Part shown: piece by piece, positions 41,331 through 55,825 of the stretch
Position numbering within the stretch: position 1 is the stretch's first letter
How the letters are laid out: every line of letters starts with the position of its first letter
DNA from: Paecilomyces variotii
Taxonomy: Eukaryota
Length of the DNA: 64,000 nt
Assembly: GCA_004022145.1 (NCBI GenBank)
Contig: RCNU01000004.1
Strand: one strand, 5' to 3'
The notes under the pieces: generated by a model
Database searches by the model: none
What the model was told of the DNA's origin: nothing
Seen by the model: the letters and a program-made list of their open reading frames with translations, nothing else
Translations under genes and position numbers: made by a program

Positions 41331-43019
41331 ATGTCCACTCCCTACAATGCGGCCGTTGACGTCCAGCCGGTCCGCCGCGCCGTAACTCTCCCTACGAAAC
41401 TCACGCATAGGAATCAGCCCAAGTCGGATTCACCTGAAGCCTCTGATACGCTTCTGTTCTACCATCCCTCCGTTAGGATTGTGCACTTCGCACCTCGTTC
41501 AGTTGTGCCGGTGCAGTTGAATGCCGCGCCCTCCGATTTCGATTATCCTGTGGACGCCATAGAAACACTGCCATGGAGATCTGCAACCGAAAGGACTGTT
41601 GCCTGTGGTCCGCTGAGATTTGAGCATATCCCAGGGTTAACAGCGTTTCTTAAGTGCGGAAACGTTGTTCATGCAATCCTCAAGAACTCCCAGTGCTGGT
41701 GTGTCGACGGGGTGTCTATCTTCGTCCTGCGCATCCGTCCACTTACATACTATCGCATTGAGCTTCCAAACGGAACCGAAGAGGATAAGCAGCGCGTTTC
41801 CGATTTGAAGATTGCTCTGCCGCAAATACTGCGTTACGAGATCACTCCATGTCCATTCAAAAGAGGGTTTACTGTCGAGATCCCCCTCGAAGCCATCCTC
41901 CCCAGAAGAAAGAAGGCATGGCGTCCGAGGTCGCGAGACAGCGCGCCCCCTCCACCCTCCGATGCATCGCAAGTCTCACAGGACTCTTGGATAAGTGATC
42001 AAGCGAGCACGGGGTATGATACTGATGGAAATGCGACCGATTTCAGCATCTCTGAGACCAACATCTCCGCGGCAGACTCCGCGGCAGACTCCACGGCAGA
42101 AATCGAGAGCGTCGCAGAGAACGACAAGTCGGTGCCTCCATTAGACATTCCCGTAAAGAGTGCATATGCACACTGCTCGGCACCAGAACTTCAGCCGAAA
42201 GTGAACACCCTGCCGGCGAGATTCGAGGCAATCCCAGAATCAGAAAGCGAGGCTGAGCAATCCACTCTCTCAACGAGTTCTGATTCTTTCCACTCTGTGC
42301 AGACCCCTGTGTCTCCATTACCACCTTCTCCGCCTTATTCCGATACCGCCTCTCCACCGCCGACACTCGATTTCGAGAAGAGATTGCCTATTCCTTCTCG
42401 TCGTCACAGCGGAGAGATATCCGAGATAAAAATAAATCCAGAGCATGTGTCCTCTGCTACACAAACTACTCCTCGCCTCTCTAATGGTGCCGCTACCTCT
42501 TTCGCGACGCAAACGTCTCCAGCGCACTCTACGTTTAGCGGGGTTTCTAGCACCTCAACTGCTGTGCCTATCTCACCAGGATTGCGCGATGCAGTGCCTT
42601 CTGCTCCTAGCGCTGCAAGCACTGGCGTTGAGCTTGAGGAACGAACCCTCAGAGTCATTTCCGAAGTCAGAGCTTCCAGGAAACGTGACCTATCGCCGAT
42701 GCCTCCACCATCAATACTTTTCCAACCAACACCTGCTGACTCAGGACACCATCTAACGGCCTCAATCCTGCAGAAGACGTGCAGCATTGTCCTTGTGCCA
42801 CCGTTCCAGTTGCTTGTACTGCTTATCCAGGTTGCAGCGAGAATTGCGGTGGGAAACGCCGTCGATCCTGCTCTTCACGACGCCAAGGACGGCAGCACTC
42901 TTGATTTCGAAGGCCAGGACGAAGAGGATGATTTCGGTCTTCCTATCACACCTGCCCTCTCTCGACAAGCTTCTAGATCGTCACAATCCAAAAACCCGGA
43001 TACCTCTGAGCTAGACTAA
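41331..43019 (+). CDS. INP1: Inheritance of peroxisomes protein 1-like
   Basis: N-terminal domain TLPWRS.TERTVACGPL...AFLKCGNVVHAILKNSQCWCVDG.S.FVLRIR..TYYRIEL, followed by a Ser/Pro-rich tail. Confidence 0.8.
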   Translation: MSTPYNAAVDVQPVRRAVTLPTKLTHRNQPKSDSPEASDTLLFYHPSVRIVHFAPRSVVPVQLNAAPSDFDYPVDAIETLPWRSATERTVACGPLRFEHIPGLTAFLKCGNVVHAILKNSQCWCVDGVSIFVLRIRPLTYYRIELPNGTEEDKQRVSDLKIALPQILRYEITPCPFKRGFTVEIPLEAILPRRKKAWRPRSRDSAPPPPSDASQVSQDSWISDQASTGYDTDGNATDFSISETNISAADSAADSTAEIESVAENDKSVPPLDIPVKSAYAHCSAPELQPKVNTLPARFEAIPESESEAEQSTLSTSSDSFHSVQTPVSPLPPSPPYSDTASPPPTLDFEKRLPIPSRRHSGEISEIKINPEHVSSATQTTPRLSNGAATSFATQTSPAHSTFSGVSSTSTAVPISPGLRDAVPSAPSAASTGVELEERTLRVISEVRASRKRDLSPMPPPSILFQPTPADSGHHLTASILQKTCSIVLVPPFQLLVLLIQVAARIAVGNAVDPALHDAKDGSTLDFEGQDEEDDFGLPITPALSRQASRSSQSKNPDTSELD

Positions 43020-44184: not shown

Positions 44185-44547
44185 CTTGGATGATGTTCGC
44201 CGATTGAATTTGTGTGAATTCACCCGTATGAGCCTCGATGGGAGAATAGAGAGTTCCGTAAACGACGGGACGAGTCAATATAGAATAATATAAATGAAGA
44301 GGCAATATTCCCGGGCAAGAAAGAATATTATCTCTCGATCTCGAATTCGTAGTCGCAAACCGTGTCCGGAGAGGGGTCCAAGTGCCGGAGGAAGCTCGGG
44401 CCACATGGAGTCTTTTCTCCGCCTCCGCTCCGCAGAACCATTTCGGCGGCAGTAAAAAAAGTCAAGATCTTACCGCTCCGGTGGAGGAGCTCGCGAAGAC
44501 ATTTTTCAATATTTTTGTCTTTCTCCAGCTCCCCAATTTATTTAACG

Positions 44548-47212
44548 ATGCCGCGTCCTATGCACAAGACGACGGCGTTGCCGCGGACGCTTCGTGATGA
44601 GCTGGGAATTAAGGATACTTATGGTGAAAAGAAACGCAGACGGAATAATGGACCCGCGTCTCGCAAAGAGCGGCGCAAGGAAGAGAGAGCTCAGAAGAAA
44701 GGTCGTCATGTACCACCGCATGTGAATCGGAGACAGTTACATCACGAGGATGACGACGAAGGTACCGATTTTGGAGGATCAGACTTTGGCTCTAACGAGT
44801 CTCAATCGGAAGAAGAGGAGGACCGTTCGACGAAGTCCAAGCCTACGAAATCAACGAAGCAACCGAAATCTATACTGAAGAAGTCTAAGAAAAGAGATGT
44901 CTCCAATGAGGAGGATGAGGATGGACCCGCTGAGCCAAAATTGCCCAAGGCTGTGAAGGAGAAGCTGGAACAGGACGATGCAGAAATCGCTGCGCTGGAG
45001 AAGAGGCTTGGGATCAAAGGAAAGAAGCTGCCCAAGTCCTTCCAGGAGGATGGCCTGGATGAGCTGCTGGGTGACTTGGCCAATGGTTCGGATATGGAAA
45101 GCAAGAAACGCAAACGAGAAGCGGATGACTGGTTACAGATGAAGAGAAGGAAAGCACGAGGTCTCGCATCTGATGAGGAAGACGATGAGAGCGACAGTGA
45201 CCTTGGCAGCGATGACGGCCTGTCCGACCTCATGGATGGCCTTGACGAAGATGAGGAGGAGGACGAAGATGACGTTGATCTAAATGAGAGTGAGGATGGC
45301 ATCGAGGAGGACGAGGAGAGCGGCAGCGACGACGAGGATGGTGACTTCGAAGGGTTTGATGAGGAAGAAGAAGAAGAAGAAGAGGCACCTCGAAAGAAAG
45401 TCAGAGAGAATCCTTATGTGGCTCCTGTGTCGAACGGAGAGAGCAAGCAAAAATACATACCTCCATCGCTCCGTGCACCAGCCGCATCTGAATCGGAGTC
45501 ACTCACCCGCCTGAGAAGACAAGCTCAAGGGCATCTCAACAAGCTCTCCGAAGCTAATCTCGTGTCCATTCTCGGAGAGATCGAGAAGCTTTATCGTGAA
45601 TACCCTCGACAGAATGTCACATCTACCCTGACGACATTACTGCTGAATCTTCTCTGTGAACGATCGGTTATGCAAGACACTTTCGTTATCCTACATGCCG
45701 GTTTCATTGCAGCCATCTATAAAGTTGTGGGCATGGACTTCGGTGCGGAGATAGTGCAGAAATTGGTCGAGACGTTCGACAAAGGCGGTGATGAAAGAGG
45801 CGCATTCGAGGGCAAGGAGGCCATCAACCTCATGTCTTTATTGTCTCAACTTTATAACTTCCAGGTCGTTGGAAGCACGTTGGTGTTCGACTACGTTCGC
45901 ATGTTCCTTGAGAAGATCACTGAATCCAACACAGAGCTTCTCTTGAAGATCATCAGAAGTATGACCCAAATGACACCTGGTTTCACCCCTGGACTCTTTA
46001 CTGACTGACGTTGCAGATTCTGGCCCCCAATTGAGACAAGATGACCCTTCTTCCCTCAAAGACATCGTTCTCCTCATTCAACCTGCGATAGCCCAGGTTG
46101 GCGAGGAATCCCTGTCAGTTCGTACAAAGTTCATGATCGACACCATTACCGATCTGAAAAACAATCGCATGAAGACTGGAGTAGCGGCGTCAGCTTTGAG
46201 CTCCGAGCACATAACCAAGATGCGCAAGATCCTGGGCTCATTGAACAACTCCCGTACGATCCGTGCGACAGAGCCGATTCGGATCTCGCGTATGGATATT
46301 CTCAATTCGTCGAAGAAGGGGAAATGGTGGCTCGTGGGCGCAAGCTGGAAGGACGATCCTCTCGAAGCTGCTAGGCAAGAACTCGGCAGTCTTCCTCGGA
46401 ATGAAGCCCCTGTCGAAGACAGCGACGGAGAACCAGACCTCGTTAGCATCGCAAAAGCTCATCGTATGAACACAGATGTTCGTCGGTCGATATTTGTGGC
46501 AATCATGTCCGCAACTGACTACCGGGATGCGCATGTGCGTCTGCTCAAGCTCCGCCTAAAACGAACGCAAGAACTCGAGATACCCCGTGTCCTCATCCAT
46601 TGCGCTATGGAGGAACAGGCGCATAATCCATACTACACACTTATCGCACGCAGAATCTGCGGGGAGCTAGGACGCCGCATCAAGGTCTCCTTCATGTTCT
46701 CCCTGTGGGACATTTTCAAGAAGATGGGTGAGCAAGGAGACCTGGACGAGGATGAGGATGACAATTTTGGTGCAGACGAGGAGGACAACAAACTCGAAAC
46801 CAAATCCGTTGTCAATCTCGCAAAGATGTACGGCAGTCTGGTGGCTGACGGGTCTCTGACTCTGGGCATCTTGAAGAACCTCAACTTCGCCTACCTCCAA
46901 CCGAAGACGAGCATGTTCGTCGAACTCCTCATCATCACTATCATCCAGCAATCGCAAAAGCAAAAGCAAAAATCGAAGAAAAAGGATGGCGAAGAAGACG
47001 CACGAAACGAGAAGCCTCTTATGGAGGTATTCCTTCGTACACGCGACACACCACAAGTTGTTAAAGGCCTGATCTATTTCATACGCAAGGTCGTTGCGAA
47101 GACAGACATCGTTCCGACAGATAAGGAACGGAAGCTGGTGAAATGGGGATGCAAAGTCGCCGTGGATGCGCTCAAGATAGTCTCAGATGGCGAGTCCGCT
47201 CTTGATGCGTGA
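44548..47212 (+). CDS. SGD1: Nucleolar MIF4G + MA3 domain protein (Sgd1/NOM1); intron 45959-46016
   Basis: KYIPPSLR, LNKLSEANL (MIF4G), R|NSGPQLRQDDPSSLKDI, GKWWLVGASW and RMNTDVRRSIFVAIMSATDY (MA3). Confidence 0.93.
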
Positions 47213-50843: not shown

Positions 50844-51270
50844 GGGGTATCCTGTAGTTGTACGAGCATCTTTGAGTTAATGTAAGAATCAGAGAGATCA
50901 AATGTCTGATACAGTAAGCTGCACACCGCCTTCGACACAGGCACAAATGGACTGCTTTCGAGATACTTCTTATGATAGGTAATGGCAAACGTTGTATAGC
51001 TCGTGAGCAATGGTATTGATCTTTGGCTATAGTGTCCCTCTGTCCCAGCATTCAGTGGTGGTCGTTCACCATATTCAGTGTATTGTAGCTCGGGTGGCCG
51101 AGATTGCTATTGCCACACAAGGAGAATCAATTCTTTTAGTAGCGCAACCACATCAATAATAATAATAGTAGTAGTAGTAGTATGGGTCTTCAAAGGAGAC
51201 TCTGTACCCATAGGTGTAGGTTCACAGGATATGATGAGGGGAGGAAAGAAAAAAAAATGAAAAAAACAAT

Positions 51271-51397
51271 TAGCATGTCCTGGTTTCGATCCAGGGACCT
51301 CCGGGTTATGAGCCCGCTATTGTAATGTTAGTGAATTTGATCAATATATATTGGGTCACGTGATTTCTTACGCGCTCTCCCCCTGAGCTAACATGCT
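51271..51397 (-). tRNA. Initiator tRNA-Met(CAU), copy 1; exons 51372-51397 and 51271-51316; 55-nt GT-AG intron 51317-51371
   Basis: The spliced 72-nt sequence folds as a full cloverleaf with A1:U72, three G:C pairs at 29-31/39-41 and T-loop AUCGAAA; an oligo-T terminator follows. Confidence 0.93.
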
Positions 51398-52972
51398 CTG
51401 ATTATTGAATATATAGTGGCAGGTGGATTTTAAGAAGGATTTTTAGTTATCATAGCTATATTTTCTTAAGTTAGGGAATTATTATTTAAGCTAAGACATA
51501 ACTAGTTAGTTAGTTAACTACCTTCTGTGCTTCCCCAGCTCTCTTATTATGTCTTTGTTTATAGGGGATTGCGGATGTGACTTTCTTGTTGTAGTGCAAG
51601 AAGATCCATTCAAACCCTACAAGAGGCTAGTTGTTTCCTTGAGTTTAAAGTTGATTGAAAACATATCTAGATTTTATGATGCGGATTACACCCATCTTTT
51701 GTAAAAAGATAGAGGTAAAGTCCAGCAGAATCTTCATCAGGGTCGATCATTCCAGATAGAATCCTGGCCACGATGGTGTCATTGACTCTTAGAAATGCCC
51801 TGGGTTATTTACGAAGAATCGAAGGGCCATATTCGTCTGTCGACATCAGCTGGCAGGGGAAAGTAAAATGAAAAGAGCACATAGGTACACCTTCGAAGAG
51901 ACCAAAAAGCGTGACGAGTTTGATGACATTTTGCCGAATCCTAGGGCACGGAGATAATATTAGGATCTATACTGGCATTTGGAAGTAAAATCTCTGAATT
52001 GCCCGCTATCCTAATTAATTGGAATCTATCACTAGTTTTATGCTAGAAGACGAATGAAGAACAATATTGCTGCGTAATCCACCTGAACAAGCGGTAAACT
52101 GTTCACATCGGGCAGCTTGTCCAACAAAAAGGACATATAGACCCACTTTTTGGCCTGAAGATTATATCTAGGTTCCTCACATGCAATTCTTGCTTCCAGT
52201 TCCTGAGCACACTTCACGAATTCACATGTGAAATGAAGGCTTAGCAAATAAATGACAACCTAGAGTTGCATGACAGATGGAGGAGACCCGGAAAGCCTCA
52301 TCCCCGAGTTCCTTGTCCACATTACTCGGAGAATTTCTGACATAGACGTCCACTGAAGAATCTCTAGAGCAATATCACAGATATTTCTCTCGGGTTTAAA
52401 AGTAGCATAAAGTCTTGGAGTCTGAAGAGAATCAGCCTCTAAGACATGTCTCTGGTTTTTGTTATCCAATGACCCTACCAGTCGCGGAGAGTCGGGGAAT
52501 TCCCCGTGTAGGATCCAGGAACGGGCAGCTGATCTGATGGCCCACCCATCCACACGTATATAGATTGCATCTTCTCGTCGACTCATATTATGGGACCTCC
52601 ACCTACGGGGTTGACCGGGCACACCTATAGAATGGTTTGGATCCTCTGTAGTGGATTATTGTTCTCGCGGAAGGATACTACTCAACCACTCTCTTTGCTC
52701 CCATGAATGCCTTACTGAGGTATCAGCAGCCACACTCATGAGGCAGTTTATGCGGTTTCTTTCCCCACGGATGGGTTGCTGGCCAATTGAAGGATATCGC
52801 AAGGTGGTTCCTGATATCCAACGTACGATGCCCGCATTTCTATTATCTCATGCTAATCGTCGAGGAGAGAGAGTCTGGAGCAGGACGATGAAGATAAATG
52901 GAGGCCATGAGCCCATCGAGGTGAGGAGGATAGGCCCAGCAAAAGTGAGTAAGTGTCAGTATCAGTTTCCCA

Positions 52973-53127
52973 ATGGCTTTCTTCAGCGTCCCTGTCTCTG
53001 CGGCCAGCTCCGCCCCCGTTTCCGCCCCCGTTTCGACGTCTTCTTCTCCCGCTCTGGCTTGTCCTGTCTCCAACTTTGCCCCCGTTTCGACCTCTTCTTC
53101 TTCCTTTTCTTCCTCTTCCTTTTTTTC

Positions 53128-53159
<32 letters not shown>

Positions 53160-54647
53160 CTTCTTCTTTCCCCCTTTTTCCGAGGTCTCCTGCCTCCGCT
53201 TTGCTGCCTCCTTATGCCTCGGTCTCGACCCCTGCCATTCCCCCTGTCCATCCCTCTGACTCTCTTGCTTTTGCTGGTCTCCTCCCTCCTACGCCTCATC
53301 CTGAGGCTCTGATTGTTCGTCCGCTTGTTCTGTTTGTTGCCAGGTCCTCCGCTGGCAGACATGACACCACTATGGAGTTCTTGAGAAATAGTCTCTGTGG
53401 TACCCGTAGAGACTATGAACGTGTCTATGGAGCCTTCGAGGCCGATTCCCCCGATTTAACATTCGTGCATGGCTCGAATCGGCCGTTTGCGCCTACGGGG
53501 CTTATTGCAACCCGTATTAGAACGTTCTTAACTCGAGCGGAGAACGAAAGACGAGATGTAGTTCTGGCCATAAATGGCTGGGACGGTCTTACGACAAATG
53601 AATTATCATTTGCCTCTCTTTTCCGGCCTGTAGAGAAGGTATGTACACATTCCCATTTTTCATTTTCATTGATGTCGATATACATAGATCGCTGTGAAAC
53701 TCCGGATCTATGTCGATTCGCCCCGTGTTTTCAAAGAGGCCGACGCTGCTATTGCAGCGAAGGTGTTCACCGGAGAGATTGATATTGAAACAAATGGACA
53801 TCTGCTTCCGGATTCCACGGCTCAATTTATCTCTAAAGTGCGAGCTATTGGCGCTGCAAAGTTGCTGTATGAACTATAAATTCCCCTGAAAAGCTGGCCA
53901 TCTAATTTATATTATTAGGCTCTCCTCGGATATGCAGAGCCTCCTTAGTGAATCGCACCAAAGAAACACTCCGCCGAACCCTGGATCCCTGCAACGCTAT
54001 AAGTGCGCTCAATGTGGCAAGGAAATGCCGACCATACAAACCCTCAATGTGCATCTTAATAGATCGCACGGTAACAAGGTCTCTTGCAAGTATTGCGGGA
54101 TGATATTTGGCAGAAAGGACCACCGAGATCGGCATGAACAAGCGGCTATCTGCCCCGAACATCCAGACTATGTGGCTCCAGAAAAGAAGCGCCGGGCACC
54201 AAGAGGCATCTCTGAACGTTTCCAGAAGCGTGTAGAGACAGCCGCGAGCCGGGGTAATCCCAGCTCGGACAACGCCTATCCGGCGTACCACGAGTTGCAA
54301 GCTAACGACTCGAGATTTCCACGGGTTGATATTGACAAGCCCATTGTTTATCGAGGAGAGGTCTTCTGTCGATTTCCGGCGTGTGTTCACCCGGTAAGTA
54401 TTATGATTTCTTTCTTAGAATATTTCTTTCTCACAAGCTAATATTGTTCTAGACTAAATTCAGTGAGACAACTAAGTTGAGAACTCACTATAAACTGAAG
54501 CATGGGCTCATGTACCCGGCCTACACGGTCGGGAGAATGTTCCCGATTGATGAGAAAACACACGCCGATGGTTTGGAGTGGTTGGCTCGCTGTGTCTATA
54601 TGGGAGAGGATACTGCTGGCCCCCAGCCAGTGCCAGAACGGCGTTGA
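52973..54647 (+). CDS. 4-exon protein: Ser-rich N-terminus + putative serine-recombinase-like domain + three C2H2-type zinc fingers; introns 53639-53687, 53867-53918 and 54394-54452
   Basis: Three GT-AG introns join four segments in frame (VEK|IAVK, KLL|LSSDMQ, VHP|TKFS). Fingers: CAQC...HLNRSH, CKYC...HEQAAIC and CRFPAC...HYKLKH. Confidence 0.7.
53127..53168 (+). repeat. (CTT)n microsatellite encoding poly-Ser
   Basis: About 13 tandem CTT units within a longer pyrimidine-rich tract. Confidence 0.9.
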
Positions 54648-54749
54648 CAGAATGTAAACATACTATATAGAAATATTGATATTTCTATGCCTTCTCTCAC
54701 CGAAATAGCTCATTACTCCTTATGTCCCGAATGAAATCCTAAAGCTGCG

Positions 54750-54853
54750 AGCAGATAGGTCGCCGGGCTGCCGCGTCGCGTAGGGCTTAACAATCATTCA
54801 AACATACCTTAACGGCCTTAGAATAAGTCTCTGATCGGAACCAGGGAATGCTA
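54750..54853 (+). pseudogene. Degenerate fourth copy of the intron-containing tRNA-iMet gene
   Basis: GTCTCTG-ATCGGAACCAGGGAATGCTATC matches GTCCCTGGATCGAAACCAGGACATGCTATC. CGCGTAGGG...TCAAACATACCTTAAC resembles the exon 1/intron junction of the 55369 copy. A T run follows; the anticodon arm is lost. Confidence 0.6.
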
Positions 54854-54939
54854 TCATCCTGTATTTTTTGATTTCTTTTCTTTCTTTTTCTTTTTTAACC
54901 TCCAAGTTATCTGTCATGTTCCGAGGGGTCAAGCTGGCC

Positions 54940-55065
54940 CTGTGAAGCTTATATCCTCCTCAGGGGCGTAAATAACCTTTCCACCAGATAAGATACTCCG
55001 TGACAACCTTATTCCGGCGCCTTGCAACACGTTTGTCGAACATGGCTTCGAACTTATTACCTCCA
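54940..55065 (-). mobile_element. Chromodomain remnant, probably from a Ty3/Gypsy chromovirus integrase
   Basis: FEAMFDKRVARRRNKVVTEYLIWWKGY, then a frameshift to YAPEED; fits the chromodomain consensus (EYLVKWKGY.PEE); no RT or integrase core seen. Confidence 0.55.
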
Positions 55066-55368
55066 TTGACTGCAGAAGGCCTCGTCAGAAGTTGCCGACC
55101 AAAAGTGTCTGCTTCGGAGCTGATTCTAGCTGCACGACTGAAATCACTGGATGATTCCACTGGCTGAGCATAAACAGTACACTGTCTCCTATAACACCCT
55201 AAGGTTTGATGGCTTCAATATTTTTGAGAGCATCAGCTAAAAGATTATTGTTGGATTGCCTCCTAATAGCTGATCACGTAGTGCAACAATCCCCCTGCTC
55301 GAGAAAATGTGGCCATAATATGGATGCCCTTCTTAAAACTTAGCTGGGTCTAGACACTCACCAATCAG

Positions 55369-55498
55369 AGCATGTTAGCTCAGGGGGAGAGCGCGTAAGG
55401 AATCACATGACTCAAATACATACATTGAACTGATCCACTAACATTACTATAGCGGGCTCATAACCCGGAGGTCCCTGGATCGAAACCAGGACATGCTA
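55369..55498 (+). tRNA. Initiator tRNA-Met(CAU), copy 2; exons 55369-55394 and 55453-55498; 58-nt GT-AG intron 55395-55452
   Basis: Exons identical to copies 1 and 3; anticodon CAT at 55459-55461; T run from 55507. Confidence 0.93.
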
Positions 55499-55698
55499 TC
55501 CAATTCTTTTTTTTTCCTGTTTAGAGCAACCCTTCTTATAAATCCTAACCTTCTCTAACAAAATATAAATAAATTAATATACTATTAGTGGCTAACTAGT
55601 ATATATCTTTTATTGATTCTTTTTCTTTAAGGTATTAAGTGATTCACCGCCTTCCTTGTTCAGGAATAAAAAAAGGGAGAGTGAAAAAAAGAATTGGA

Positions 55699-55825
55699 TA
55701 GCATGTCCTGGTTTCGATCCAGGGACCTCCGGGTTATGAGCCCGCTATAGTAATGTTAGTGAATTTGATCATTTTATATTGGGTCACGTGATTCCTTACG
55801 CGCTCTCCCCCTGAGCTAACATGCT
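55699..55825 (-). tRNA. Initiator tRNA-Met(CAU), copy 3; exons 55800-55825 and 55699-55744; 55-nt GT-AG intron 55745-55799
   Basis: Exons identical to the other copies; convergent with copy 2; shares the 3' trailer TCCAATTCTTTTTTT. Confidence 0.93.

Follow-up and report, generated by a model that had tools for sequence, protein, structure and literature searches.

The contig RCNU01000004.1 of Paecilomyces variotii (NCBI GenBank assembly GCA_004022145.1) contains, within the stretch of 64,000 nucleotides (nt) that we analyzed (hereafter the window), three genes for the initiator tRNA-Met, each of which is interrupted between tRNA positions 27 and 28 by an insert of 55 or 58 nt. We think it likely, at a probability of roughly 0.7, that these are working genes whose insert is a U2-type GT-AG spliceosomal intron, removed exactly at its GT and AG ends. 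The observation itself is real and far beyond chance. In contigs from sequencing runs, the joined form of the gene is found in two of three runs that look like RNA, which come from two studies, and not in the single run that looks like DNA.

Three interrupted initiator tRNA genes

Exact matching of both tRNA halves places gene A at 51271–51397 on the minus strand, gene B at 55369–55498 on the plus strand and gene C at 55699–55825 on the minus strand, with no further initiator gene in the window. This bears out a preliminary description, made from the letters alone, which had reported three intact genes with inserts of 55, 58 and 55 nt. All three share one layout. A 26-nt 5′ part comprises tRNA positions 1–27 with the A box and D arm (51372–51397 in A, 55369–55394 in B, 55800–55825 in C). 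The insert follows just past the first base of the anticodon stem (51317–51371, 55 nt, in A; 55395–55452, 58 nt, in B; 55745–55799, 55 nt, in C). The 46-nt 3′ part carries tRNA positions 28–73, including the CAT anticodon and the T arm (51271–51316 in A, 55453–55498 in B, 55699–55744 in C).

When the inserts are cut out in silico by their coordinates, three identical 72-nt products result. ARAGORN recognizes tRNA-Met(cat) with a full cloverleaf in all three spliced forms and in none of the three unspliced ones. In the spliced cloverleaf, the anticodon is CAU and its stem is closed by three G:C pairs, the acceptor begins with A1:U72, and the T loop reads AUCGAAA. The A1:U72 pair, these G:C pairs and the T-loop bases A54 and A60 we take to be marks of a eukaryotic initiator.

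Applied to the whole window, ARAGORN finds no tRNA gene and Rfam gives no match at the gathering score; at E ≤ 10, Rfam returns for these genes a single half-match of 17.1 bits, against a threshold of 29. The earlier suspicion that standard tRNA scanners would pass over the genes was correct, and annotations may seem to lack an initiator tRNA because both ARAGORN and the Rfam tRNA model miss them. A match to sno_ncR1 at 51617–51717 (24.4 bits, E = 1, threshold 94) was taken as chance.

The exons of the three copies are identical at 72 of 72 bases, while the flanks cannot be aligned beyond about 15 nt; identical exons amid unrelated flanks rule out decaying pseudogenes. The introns of A and C agree at 51 of 55 positions. 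Those of B and C share 16 of their first 17 letters and all of their last 17, and differ in the middle. Identical exons and conserved splice signals around diverged intron middles, as the preliminary description had it, are thus a real pattern. Beyond the three genes, blastn-short detects no exon or intron sequence in the 64 kb, whether complete or partial, and the window itself shows no introner-like spread.

We compared the window with contigs from four sequencing runs: one genome-like (X1, 33.9 Mb of contigs with the same organism label) and three that were guessed to be RNA (X8, X16 and X19). X1 contains gene B with its intron as one 130-nt contig (record 4). Contigs of this run show two different continuations behind positions 55513 and 55522, which implies that the genome has two or more further initiator copies outside the window. 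These have the same trailer as genes B and C, followed by other DNA, and the spliced X8 contig described below derives from one of them. The depth of the gene B contig in X1 is 325.8, compared to 141–157 for its neighbors, which hints at a second copy with a B-type intron, depth being a weak measure.

Elsewhere, the intronless initiator gene is the usual form. A degenerate, eukaryote-specific pattern for the 3′ half found 10 initiator genes on 9 contaminant contigs in a prokaryote genome collection, and such a pattern found 31 on 29 loci in a viral collection. All 41 of these eukaryote-type genes are uninterrupted; none is known to be fungal. The exact 3′ exon has no match in the prokaryote collection. 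In metagenomes, a pattern of the 5′ exon end, 40–70 nt and the 3′ exon start matched 7 loci, all of which are bacterial tRNA-fMet genes with a chance upstream match and were rejected. In the part of an Aspergillus niger tRNA catalogue accessible to us, two 72-bp intronless tRNA-Met genes are given, their initiator status being unstated there (PMC6108506).

Splice signals and exon junctions

The three inserts carry a full set of spliceosomal signals. Their 5′ splice sites, GTAAGA in A and GTAAGG in B and C, all conform to GTRNGN, the pattern for pairing with U1. The branch site is ACTAAC in all three, in agreement with CTRAY, its A lies 11 nt before the last intron base, and each insert ends in TAG, a YAG acceptor. 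The GTAAG donor, the branch site and the TAG acceptor that had been pointed out beforehand are therefore present in 3/3 inserts. The cut is also unambiguous, as the last base of the 5′ exon is C and that of the intron is G, and the first base of the intron is G and that of the 3′ exon is C. Because the border bases are not repeated, a shift of one base either way would place G opposite G in the anticodon stem, in agreement with the preliminary description.

We searched both strands of the window for GTAAG..ACTAAC..YAG spanning 45–75 nt. There are three occurrences, and all are these inserts; simulated windows have 0.16. Since the genes are paralogues, the three inserts count as one evolutionary event and not as three. 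The probability of finding all three signals together in a random insert whose ends are fixed is negligible.

As a local yardstick we used an ab initio screen for mRNA introns, which collects GT..AG segments whose removal fuses two open frames of at least 60 codons each. The screen yields 16 candidates in the window, 10 of them no longer than 80 nt, and the median of those 10 is 58 nt. Donors among the candidates include GTAAGT, GTATGT and GTGAGT; as branch sites they have CTAAC, CTAAT, CTGAC or CTGAT, 8–22 nt before the intron end (13 and 8 nt in introns confirmed by RNA-like contigs). Our reference mRNA intron, at 53867–53918 on the plus strand, is 52 nt long, with GTATGA, a CTAAT 13 nt from the end, and TAG; it is absent from an X8 contig that has 200 letters on the shorter side. 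This intron lies 1.4 kb away from a tRNA insert. A second X8-confirmed GT..AG intron, of 78 nt, is at 55204–55281 on the plus strand. Compared to these, the inserts of 55–58 nt fall within the local range (candidate median 58 nt, RNA-confirmed 52 nt), so that the likeness in length to mRNA introns of the window, noted earlier, holds.

X8 contigs have GT..AG joints from 53866 to 53919, a clean 52-nt skip, and from 55201 to 55280. Neither joint occurs in the DNA-like X1, and X8 thus behaves as RNA. Another X8 contig has a joint from 55744 to 55800, between the 3′ and 5′ exons of gene C. It skips exactly the 55 letters of the gene C intron, with an ambiguity of 0 on both sides and 34 letters on the shorter side. 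On the plus strand the skipped segment has CT..AC ends, which corresponds to GT..AG in the minus-strand orientation of the gene. The alignment pieces end exactly at the exon borders. With 5 initial and 3 final letters common to all three known introns, a retained homologous intron would have drawn the alignment past the borders, and the contig therefore lacks one. The contig is at least 545 letters long (at least 255 + 61 + 34 + 195); its part upstream of the gene measures at least 195 letters and its downstream part, which goes far beyond a T7 run, at least 255. This downstream part includes 30 loose letters that match, as an exact reverse complement, the loose end found in X1 behind 55513. 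This identity indicates that the spliced RNA comes from a further genomic copy (D), the flank of which is present in DNA.

X19, which belongs to another study, has an 88-letter contig (record 9) with a second junction. Its letters 1–50 align to 55695–55744, that is, to 4 trailer letters and the 3′ exon, and its letters 51–76 align to the 5′ exon, including that of gene A. The exon pieces are adjacent with nothing between them, a clean exon-exon junction; one letter of the 5′ exon is changed, and 12 foreign leader letters follow. Nothing in X16 aligned to the region, and for X8 and X19 the evidence comes from the parts of the stretch that their contigs cover. Exons joined at the predicted GT and AG borders, a junction that the preliminary description had proposed to look for, are accordingly seen in contigs of the RNA-like X8 and X19, and not in X1.

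Transcription, proposed pathway and competing explanations

The surroundings of the genes are those of tRNA genes transcribed by RNA polymerase III (Pol III). Terminator-like T runs follow each gene: T7 and T9 runs at 51249–51266 (minus strand), the first 5 nt past the end of gene A, a T9 run at 55507–55515 (plus strand), 9 nt past gene B, and a T7 run at 55684–55690 (minus strand), 9 nt past gene C. With their A and B boxes within the exons and T7–T9 runs 5–9 nt past each gene, all three have the organization of Pol III type-2 genes. Upstream, the TATA-like 11-nt element CCTTCTTAAAA occupies positions −41 to −31 of gene A (51428–51438, minus strand) and of gene B (55328–55338, plus strand). 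It is identical in these otherwise unrelated flanks and is a candidate site for TFIIIB; gene C has only TTAA there. The introns have no T run longer than 2, which is a weak test, as only 3 of the 16 candidate mRNA introns have a run of T4 or more. Judged from sequence, the anatomy is that of independent Pol III units, and Pol III appears the more likely polymerase, if an unproven one. Its 12 leader and 4 trailer letters give the X19 spliced contig the length of a Pol III primary transcript after splicing and before trimming.

The pathway that we propose would begin with transcription of the gene as an ordinary tRNA unit, from the upstream TTAAAA element and the exonic A and B boxes to the T7–T9 terminator. 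The resulting precursor of 127–130 nt would be unable to form the anticodon stem. U1 would pair with GUAAG, and the branch-site ACUAAC and the UAG 11 nt downstream would serve the two transesterifications, with the spliceosome as the presumed catalyst. The joined 72-nt body could then fold and be trimmed by RNase P and RNase Z. Splicing may be able to precede end trimming, as the leader and trailer letters of the X19 contig suggest, and every initiator tRNA in the cell would take the spliceosome route. It is tempting to speculate further that this fungus, and perhaps a wider set of Eurotiales, makes no initiator tRNA without the spliceosome, which would act on a short, uncapped Pol III precursor before end trimming, and that the start of translation then depends on splicing capacity. 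We hold this extension tentatively, at somewhat below even odds.

Two observations concern transcription around the genes. The X8-spliced intron at 55204–55281 lies on the strand of gene B and has its end 88 nt upstream of the gene, and a 42-codon open reading frame lies just upstream of this intron, at about 55043–55171; a weak transcript of RNA polymerase II (Pol II) therefore runs towards, and may pass through, gene B. Summed contig depth in X8 is highest, at 53.9, in the bin 51200–51356, where the terminator and 3′ exon of gene A lie together with part of its intron, and one X8 contig extends over the end of the stretch.

Several points weigh against our interpretation. The RNA label of X8, X16 and X19 is a guess, and the evidence consists of contigs and not of reads. 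The X8 joint is flagged "between: not known", so that unrelated letters between its two sides are formally possible. The length of this contig looks like that of a Pol II or read-through transcript, which would show that the insert can be spliced and would not imply splicing of a tRNA precursor. The X19 pieces are 95–99% alike and have foreign flanks; they may come from another strain or species, in which an intronless gene is possible. X1 has no joint anywhere in the stretch, where contigs can show presence and not absence, and our comparison covers the 64-kb window and the contigs rather than the whole genome. At the 5′ exon end, GCGC is atypical for the exon side of a donor. Finally, gene-conversion tracts would also give the observed pattern of intron divergence, and the intron ends may owe their conservation to conversion reaching them from the exons instead of to selection on splice signals.

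We also considered other explanations. Splicing of the insert by the spliceosome might be confined to Pol II transcripts, of a host gene or by read-through, that cross the tRNA genes; Pol III transcripts would then be unspliced dead ends, and the working tRNA would be cut by RNase P and RNase Z from the spliced Pol II RNA or would come from an undetected gene. The reach of the X8 contig on both sides of the gene, past the T7 run, and the spliced Pol II-type intron 88 nt before gene B fit this account, and recruitment of the spliceosome is normally coupled to Pol II. We nevertheless regard it as unlikely, because T7–T9 runs no more than 9 nt past each of the three genes and the element at −41 to −31 of A and B would be useless for Pol II alone. 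Ordinary RNA libraries also lose tRNA-sized molecules, so that long transcripts alone would be visible under either model, and the X19 contig is sized like a Pol III product. In fission yeast, moreover, the U6 RNA is a Pol III transcript that is spliced, a precedent that makes the splicing of a Pol III precursor plausible (PMC5855946, as far as accessible).

If, instead, the three genes were disabled copies and intronless genes elsewhere supplied both the initiator tRNA and the joined contigs, the foreign leader and the changed 5′ exon letter of the X19 contig would be readily explained, and the uninterrupted state of all 41 other eukaryote-type initiator genes would be in keeping. This account has difficulty with 72/72 identical exon bases in three copies with unrelated flanks and with splice signals and terminators that are intact. 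X1 has no joined form among the contigs examined, yet it shows further copies behind 55513 and 55522, and the X8 spliced contig shares its flank with one of these DNA copies. We therefore consider such a source of initiator tRNA quite improbable.

The least probable of the alternatives, in our view, is that the tRNA splicing endonuclease (SEN) or another protein nuclease cuts out the insert as a non-canonical tRNA intron and Trl1 seals the ends, with the GT...AG ends and branch motifs as coincidence or relic. Away from position 37/38, the ruler mechanism of the eukaryotic endonuclease is inapplicable, and the insert at 27/28 would have to present a bulge-helix-bulge (BHB). In the geometry for which we tested the precursors, the cuts fall behind the second base of each of two 3-nt bulges, and a 4-bp central helix is accompanied by an inner and an outer one; it is consistent with the anticodon-intron pair rule and was applied without a positive control. 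Of the 4 central pairs, 1, 2 and 2 can form at the GT and AG cuts of the three precursors, and the outer helix has 0 bp. The precursors contain no hBHBh′ motif, whichever pair of cut sites is taken, and both relaxed forms of the motif fail because each requires the central helix. The statement in the preliminary description that no BHB can be formed here thus withstood the test. In the predicted minimum free energy (MFE) fold, the precursors keep the acceptor and T arms and have long-range pairing in place of the D and anticodon arms. This fold includes a 3-bp helix joining both cut sites, which could be read in favor of a nuclease; its energy is −34 to −36 kcal/mol compared to about −23 kcal/mol with the cloverleaf enforced, and lies about 2 standard deviations below shuffled sequences, so that it has no weight as a conserved structure. 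Non-canonical sites, including ones in the anticodon stem, can be cut by eukaryotic endonucleases in Cyanidioschyzon and nucleomorphs, and some very short nucleomorph introns are removed by a mechanism described as unknown (PMC4090602, in the sections available). Set against this, the full set of spliceosomal signals, spaced as is usual in this genome, is expected 0.16 times per 64 kb at any position and far less often at fixed borders. A self-splicing group I or group II intron is excluded: 55–58 nt is too short, and no Rfam intron family matches at the gathering score or at E ≤ 10.

Known systems and neighboring features

In the literature searchable in full text, from which subscription journals are mostly missing, we found no earlier report of a spliceosomal intron in a tRNA gene, in line with the preliminary description, which knew of none. 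The accessible portion of PMC5855946 names U6, U2, U5, U1 and rRNA as non-coding hosts of spliceosomal introns and no tRNA. Likewise, a review of tRNA from 2023 (PMC10275265) and a preprint from 2025 (10.1101/2025.06.17.660180), in the parts available, present the introns of tRNAs as a class separate from, and unrelated to, spliceosomal introns. It therefore seems that tRNA is probably a new host class for spliceosomal introns of non-coding, Pol III-type genes.

The closest parallel is the single, Pol III-transcribed U6 snRNA gene of Schizosaccharomyces pombe, whose mRNA-type intron the spliceosome excises (Tani and Ohshima 1989, as given in the accessible text of PMC5855946). Similar to that gene, ours are small, essential, Pol III-type non-coding RNA genes with a short GT-AG intron and branch site, and the intron is about as long as mRNA introns of the same organism. 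Unlike U6, however, the host is a tRNA and not a component of the spliceosome, and there are several dispersed copies, all of which, as far as seen, carry the intron. Dependence on the spliceosome is shown for U6, whereas we infer it here, and the origin proposed for the U6 intron, reverse splicing into an RNA at the catalytic center, is not obviously applicable to a tRNA. Other stable fungal non-coding RNAs with spliceosomal introns are the U1, U2 and U5 snRNAs of Rhodotorula hasegawae and some ascomycete rRNAs, which differ from our case in being products of Pol II or Pol I genes (PMC5855946, same portion).

Compared to canonical tRNA introns, which lie at 37/38 and depend on SEN/TSEN with Trl1 or RTCB, the inserts are also found in a nuclear tRNA and also need removal before the tRNA can function. 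They differ in their position at 27/28, in having no anticodon-intron pairing geometry, and in their GT-AG ends and branch site. In the sections available of a 2014 review, non-canonical tRNA introns of eukaryotes are confined to Cyanidioschyzon and nucleomorphs, and the word spliceosome does not occur (PMC4090602). The tRNA genes of Cyanidioschyzon merolae and of cryptophyte and chlorarachniophyte nucleomorphs resemble ours in being split outside 37/38, the anticodon stem included, and in being missed by standard scanners. Their introns, in contrast, are either 3–24 nt long (Guillardia theta nucleomorph) or rely on a BHB and the tRNA endonuclease, whereas those described here have 55–58 nt and spliceosomal signals (PMC4090602, same sections).

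If the initiator tRNA of this fungus does depend on the spliceosome, the textbook division, stated in the reviews above, between nuclear tRNA introns cut by the tRNA endonuclease and spliceosomal introns of Pol II transcripts would be broken. There would be a second Pol III host class besides U6 and a fourth route of nuclear tRNA maturation, and translation initiation would depend on pre-mRNA splicing. The question would then be how the intron entered a tRNA gene and how it spread to, or stayed in, all copies. With short genes, clear point mutations and a transformable fungus, the system is experimentally tractable.

All three introns contain an RTCACRTG box at intron positions 9–16, within the conserved 5′ third: TCACGTGA in A and C and TCACATGA in B (51356–51363 on the minus strand, 55403–55410 on the plus strand and 55784–55791 on the minus strand). 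The box is presumably an E-box of the Cbf1 type, bound by bHLH proteins. It could be a candidate intragenic protein-binding element or could reflect mere shared ancestry; in the former case, it could add transcription-factor control from inside the gene.

Other features of the window lie apart from the tRNA genes. A long CTT/TTC microsatellite occupies 53087–53176, within a low-complexity, serine-rich open frame, and was passed over as repetitive in the comparison with the sequencing runs. At 44353–47212, on the plus strand, is a two-exon gene for a protein with MIF4G and MA3 domains, Sgd1/NOM1-like by its families, with a 58-nt intron candidate at 45959–46016. The single-exon gene at 41331–43016 encodes an Inp1-domain protein that marks the window as coming from a P. 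variotii-like member of the Eurotiales; it is 98% identical to a Paecilomyces variotii protein and 84% identical to one of P. variotii No. 5; the next named matches, at 43–50% identity, are from Thermoascus, Rasamsonia and Aspergillus.

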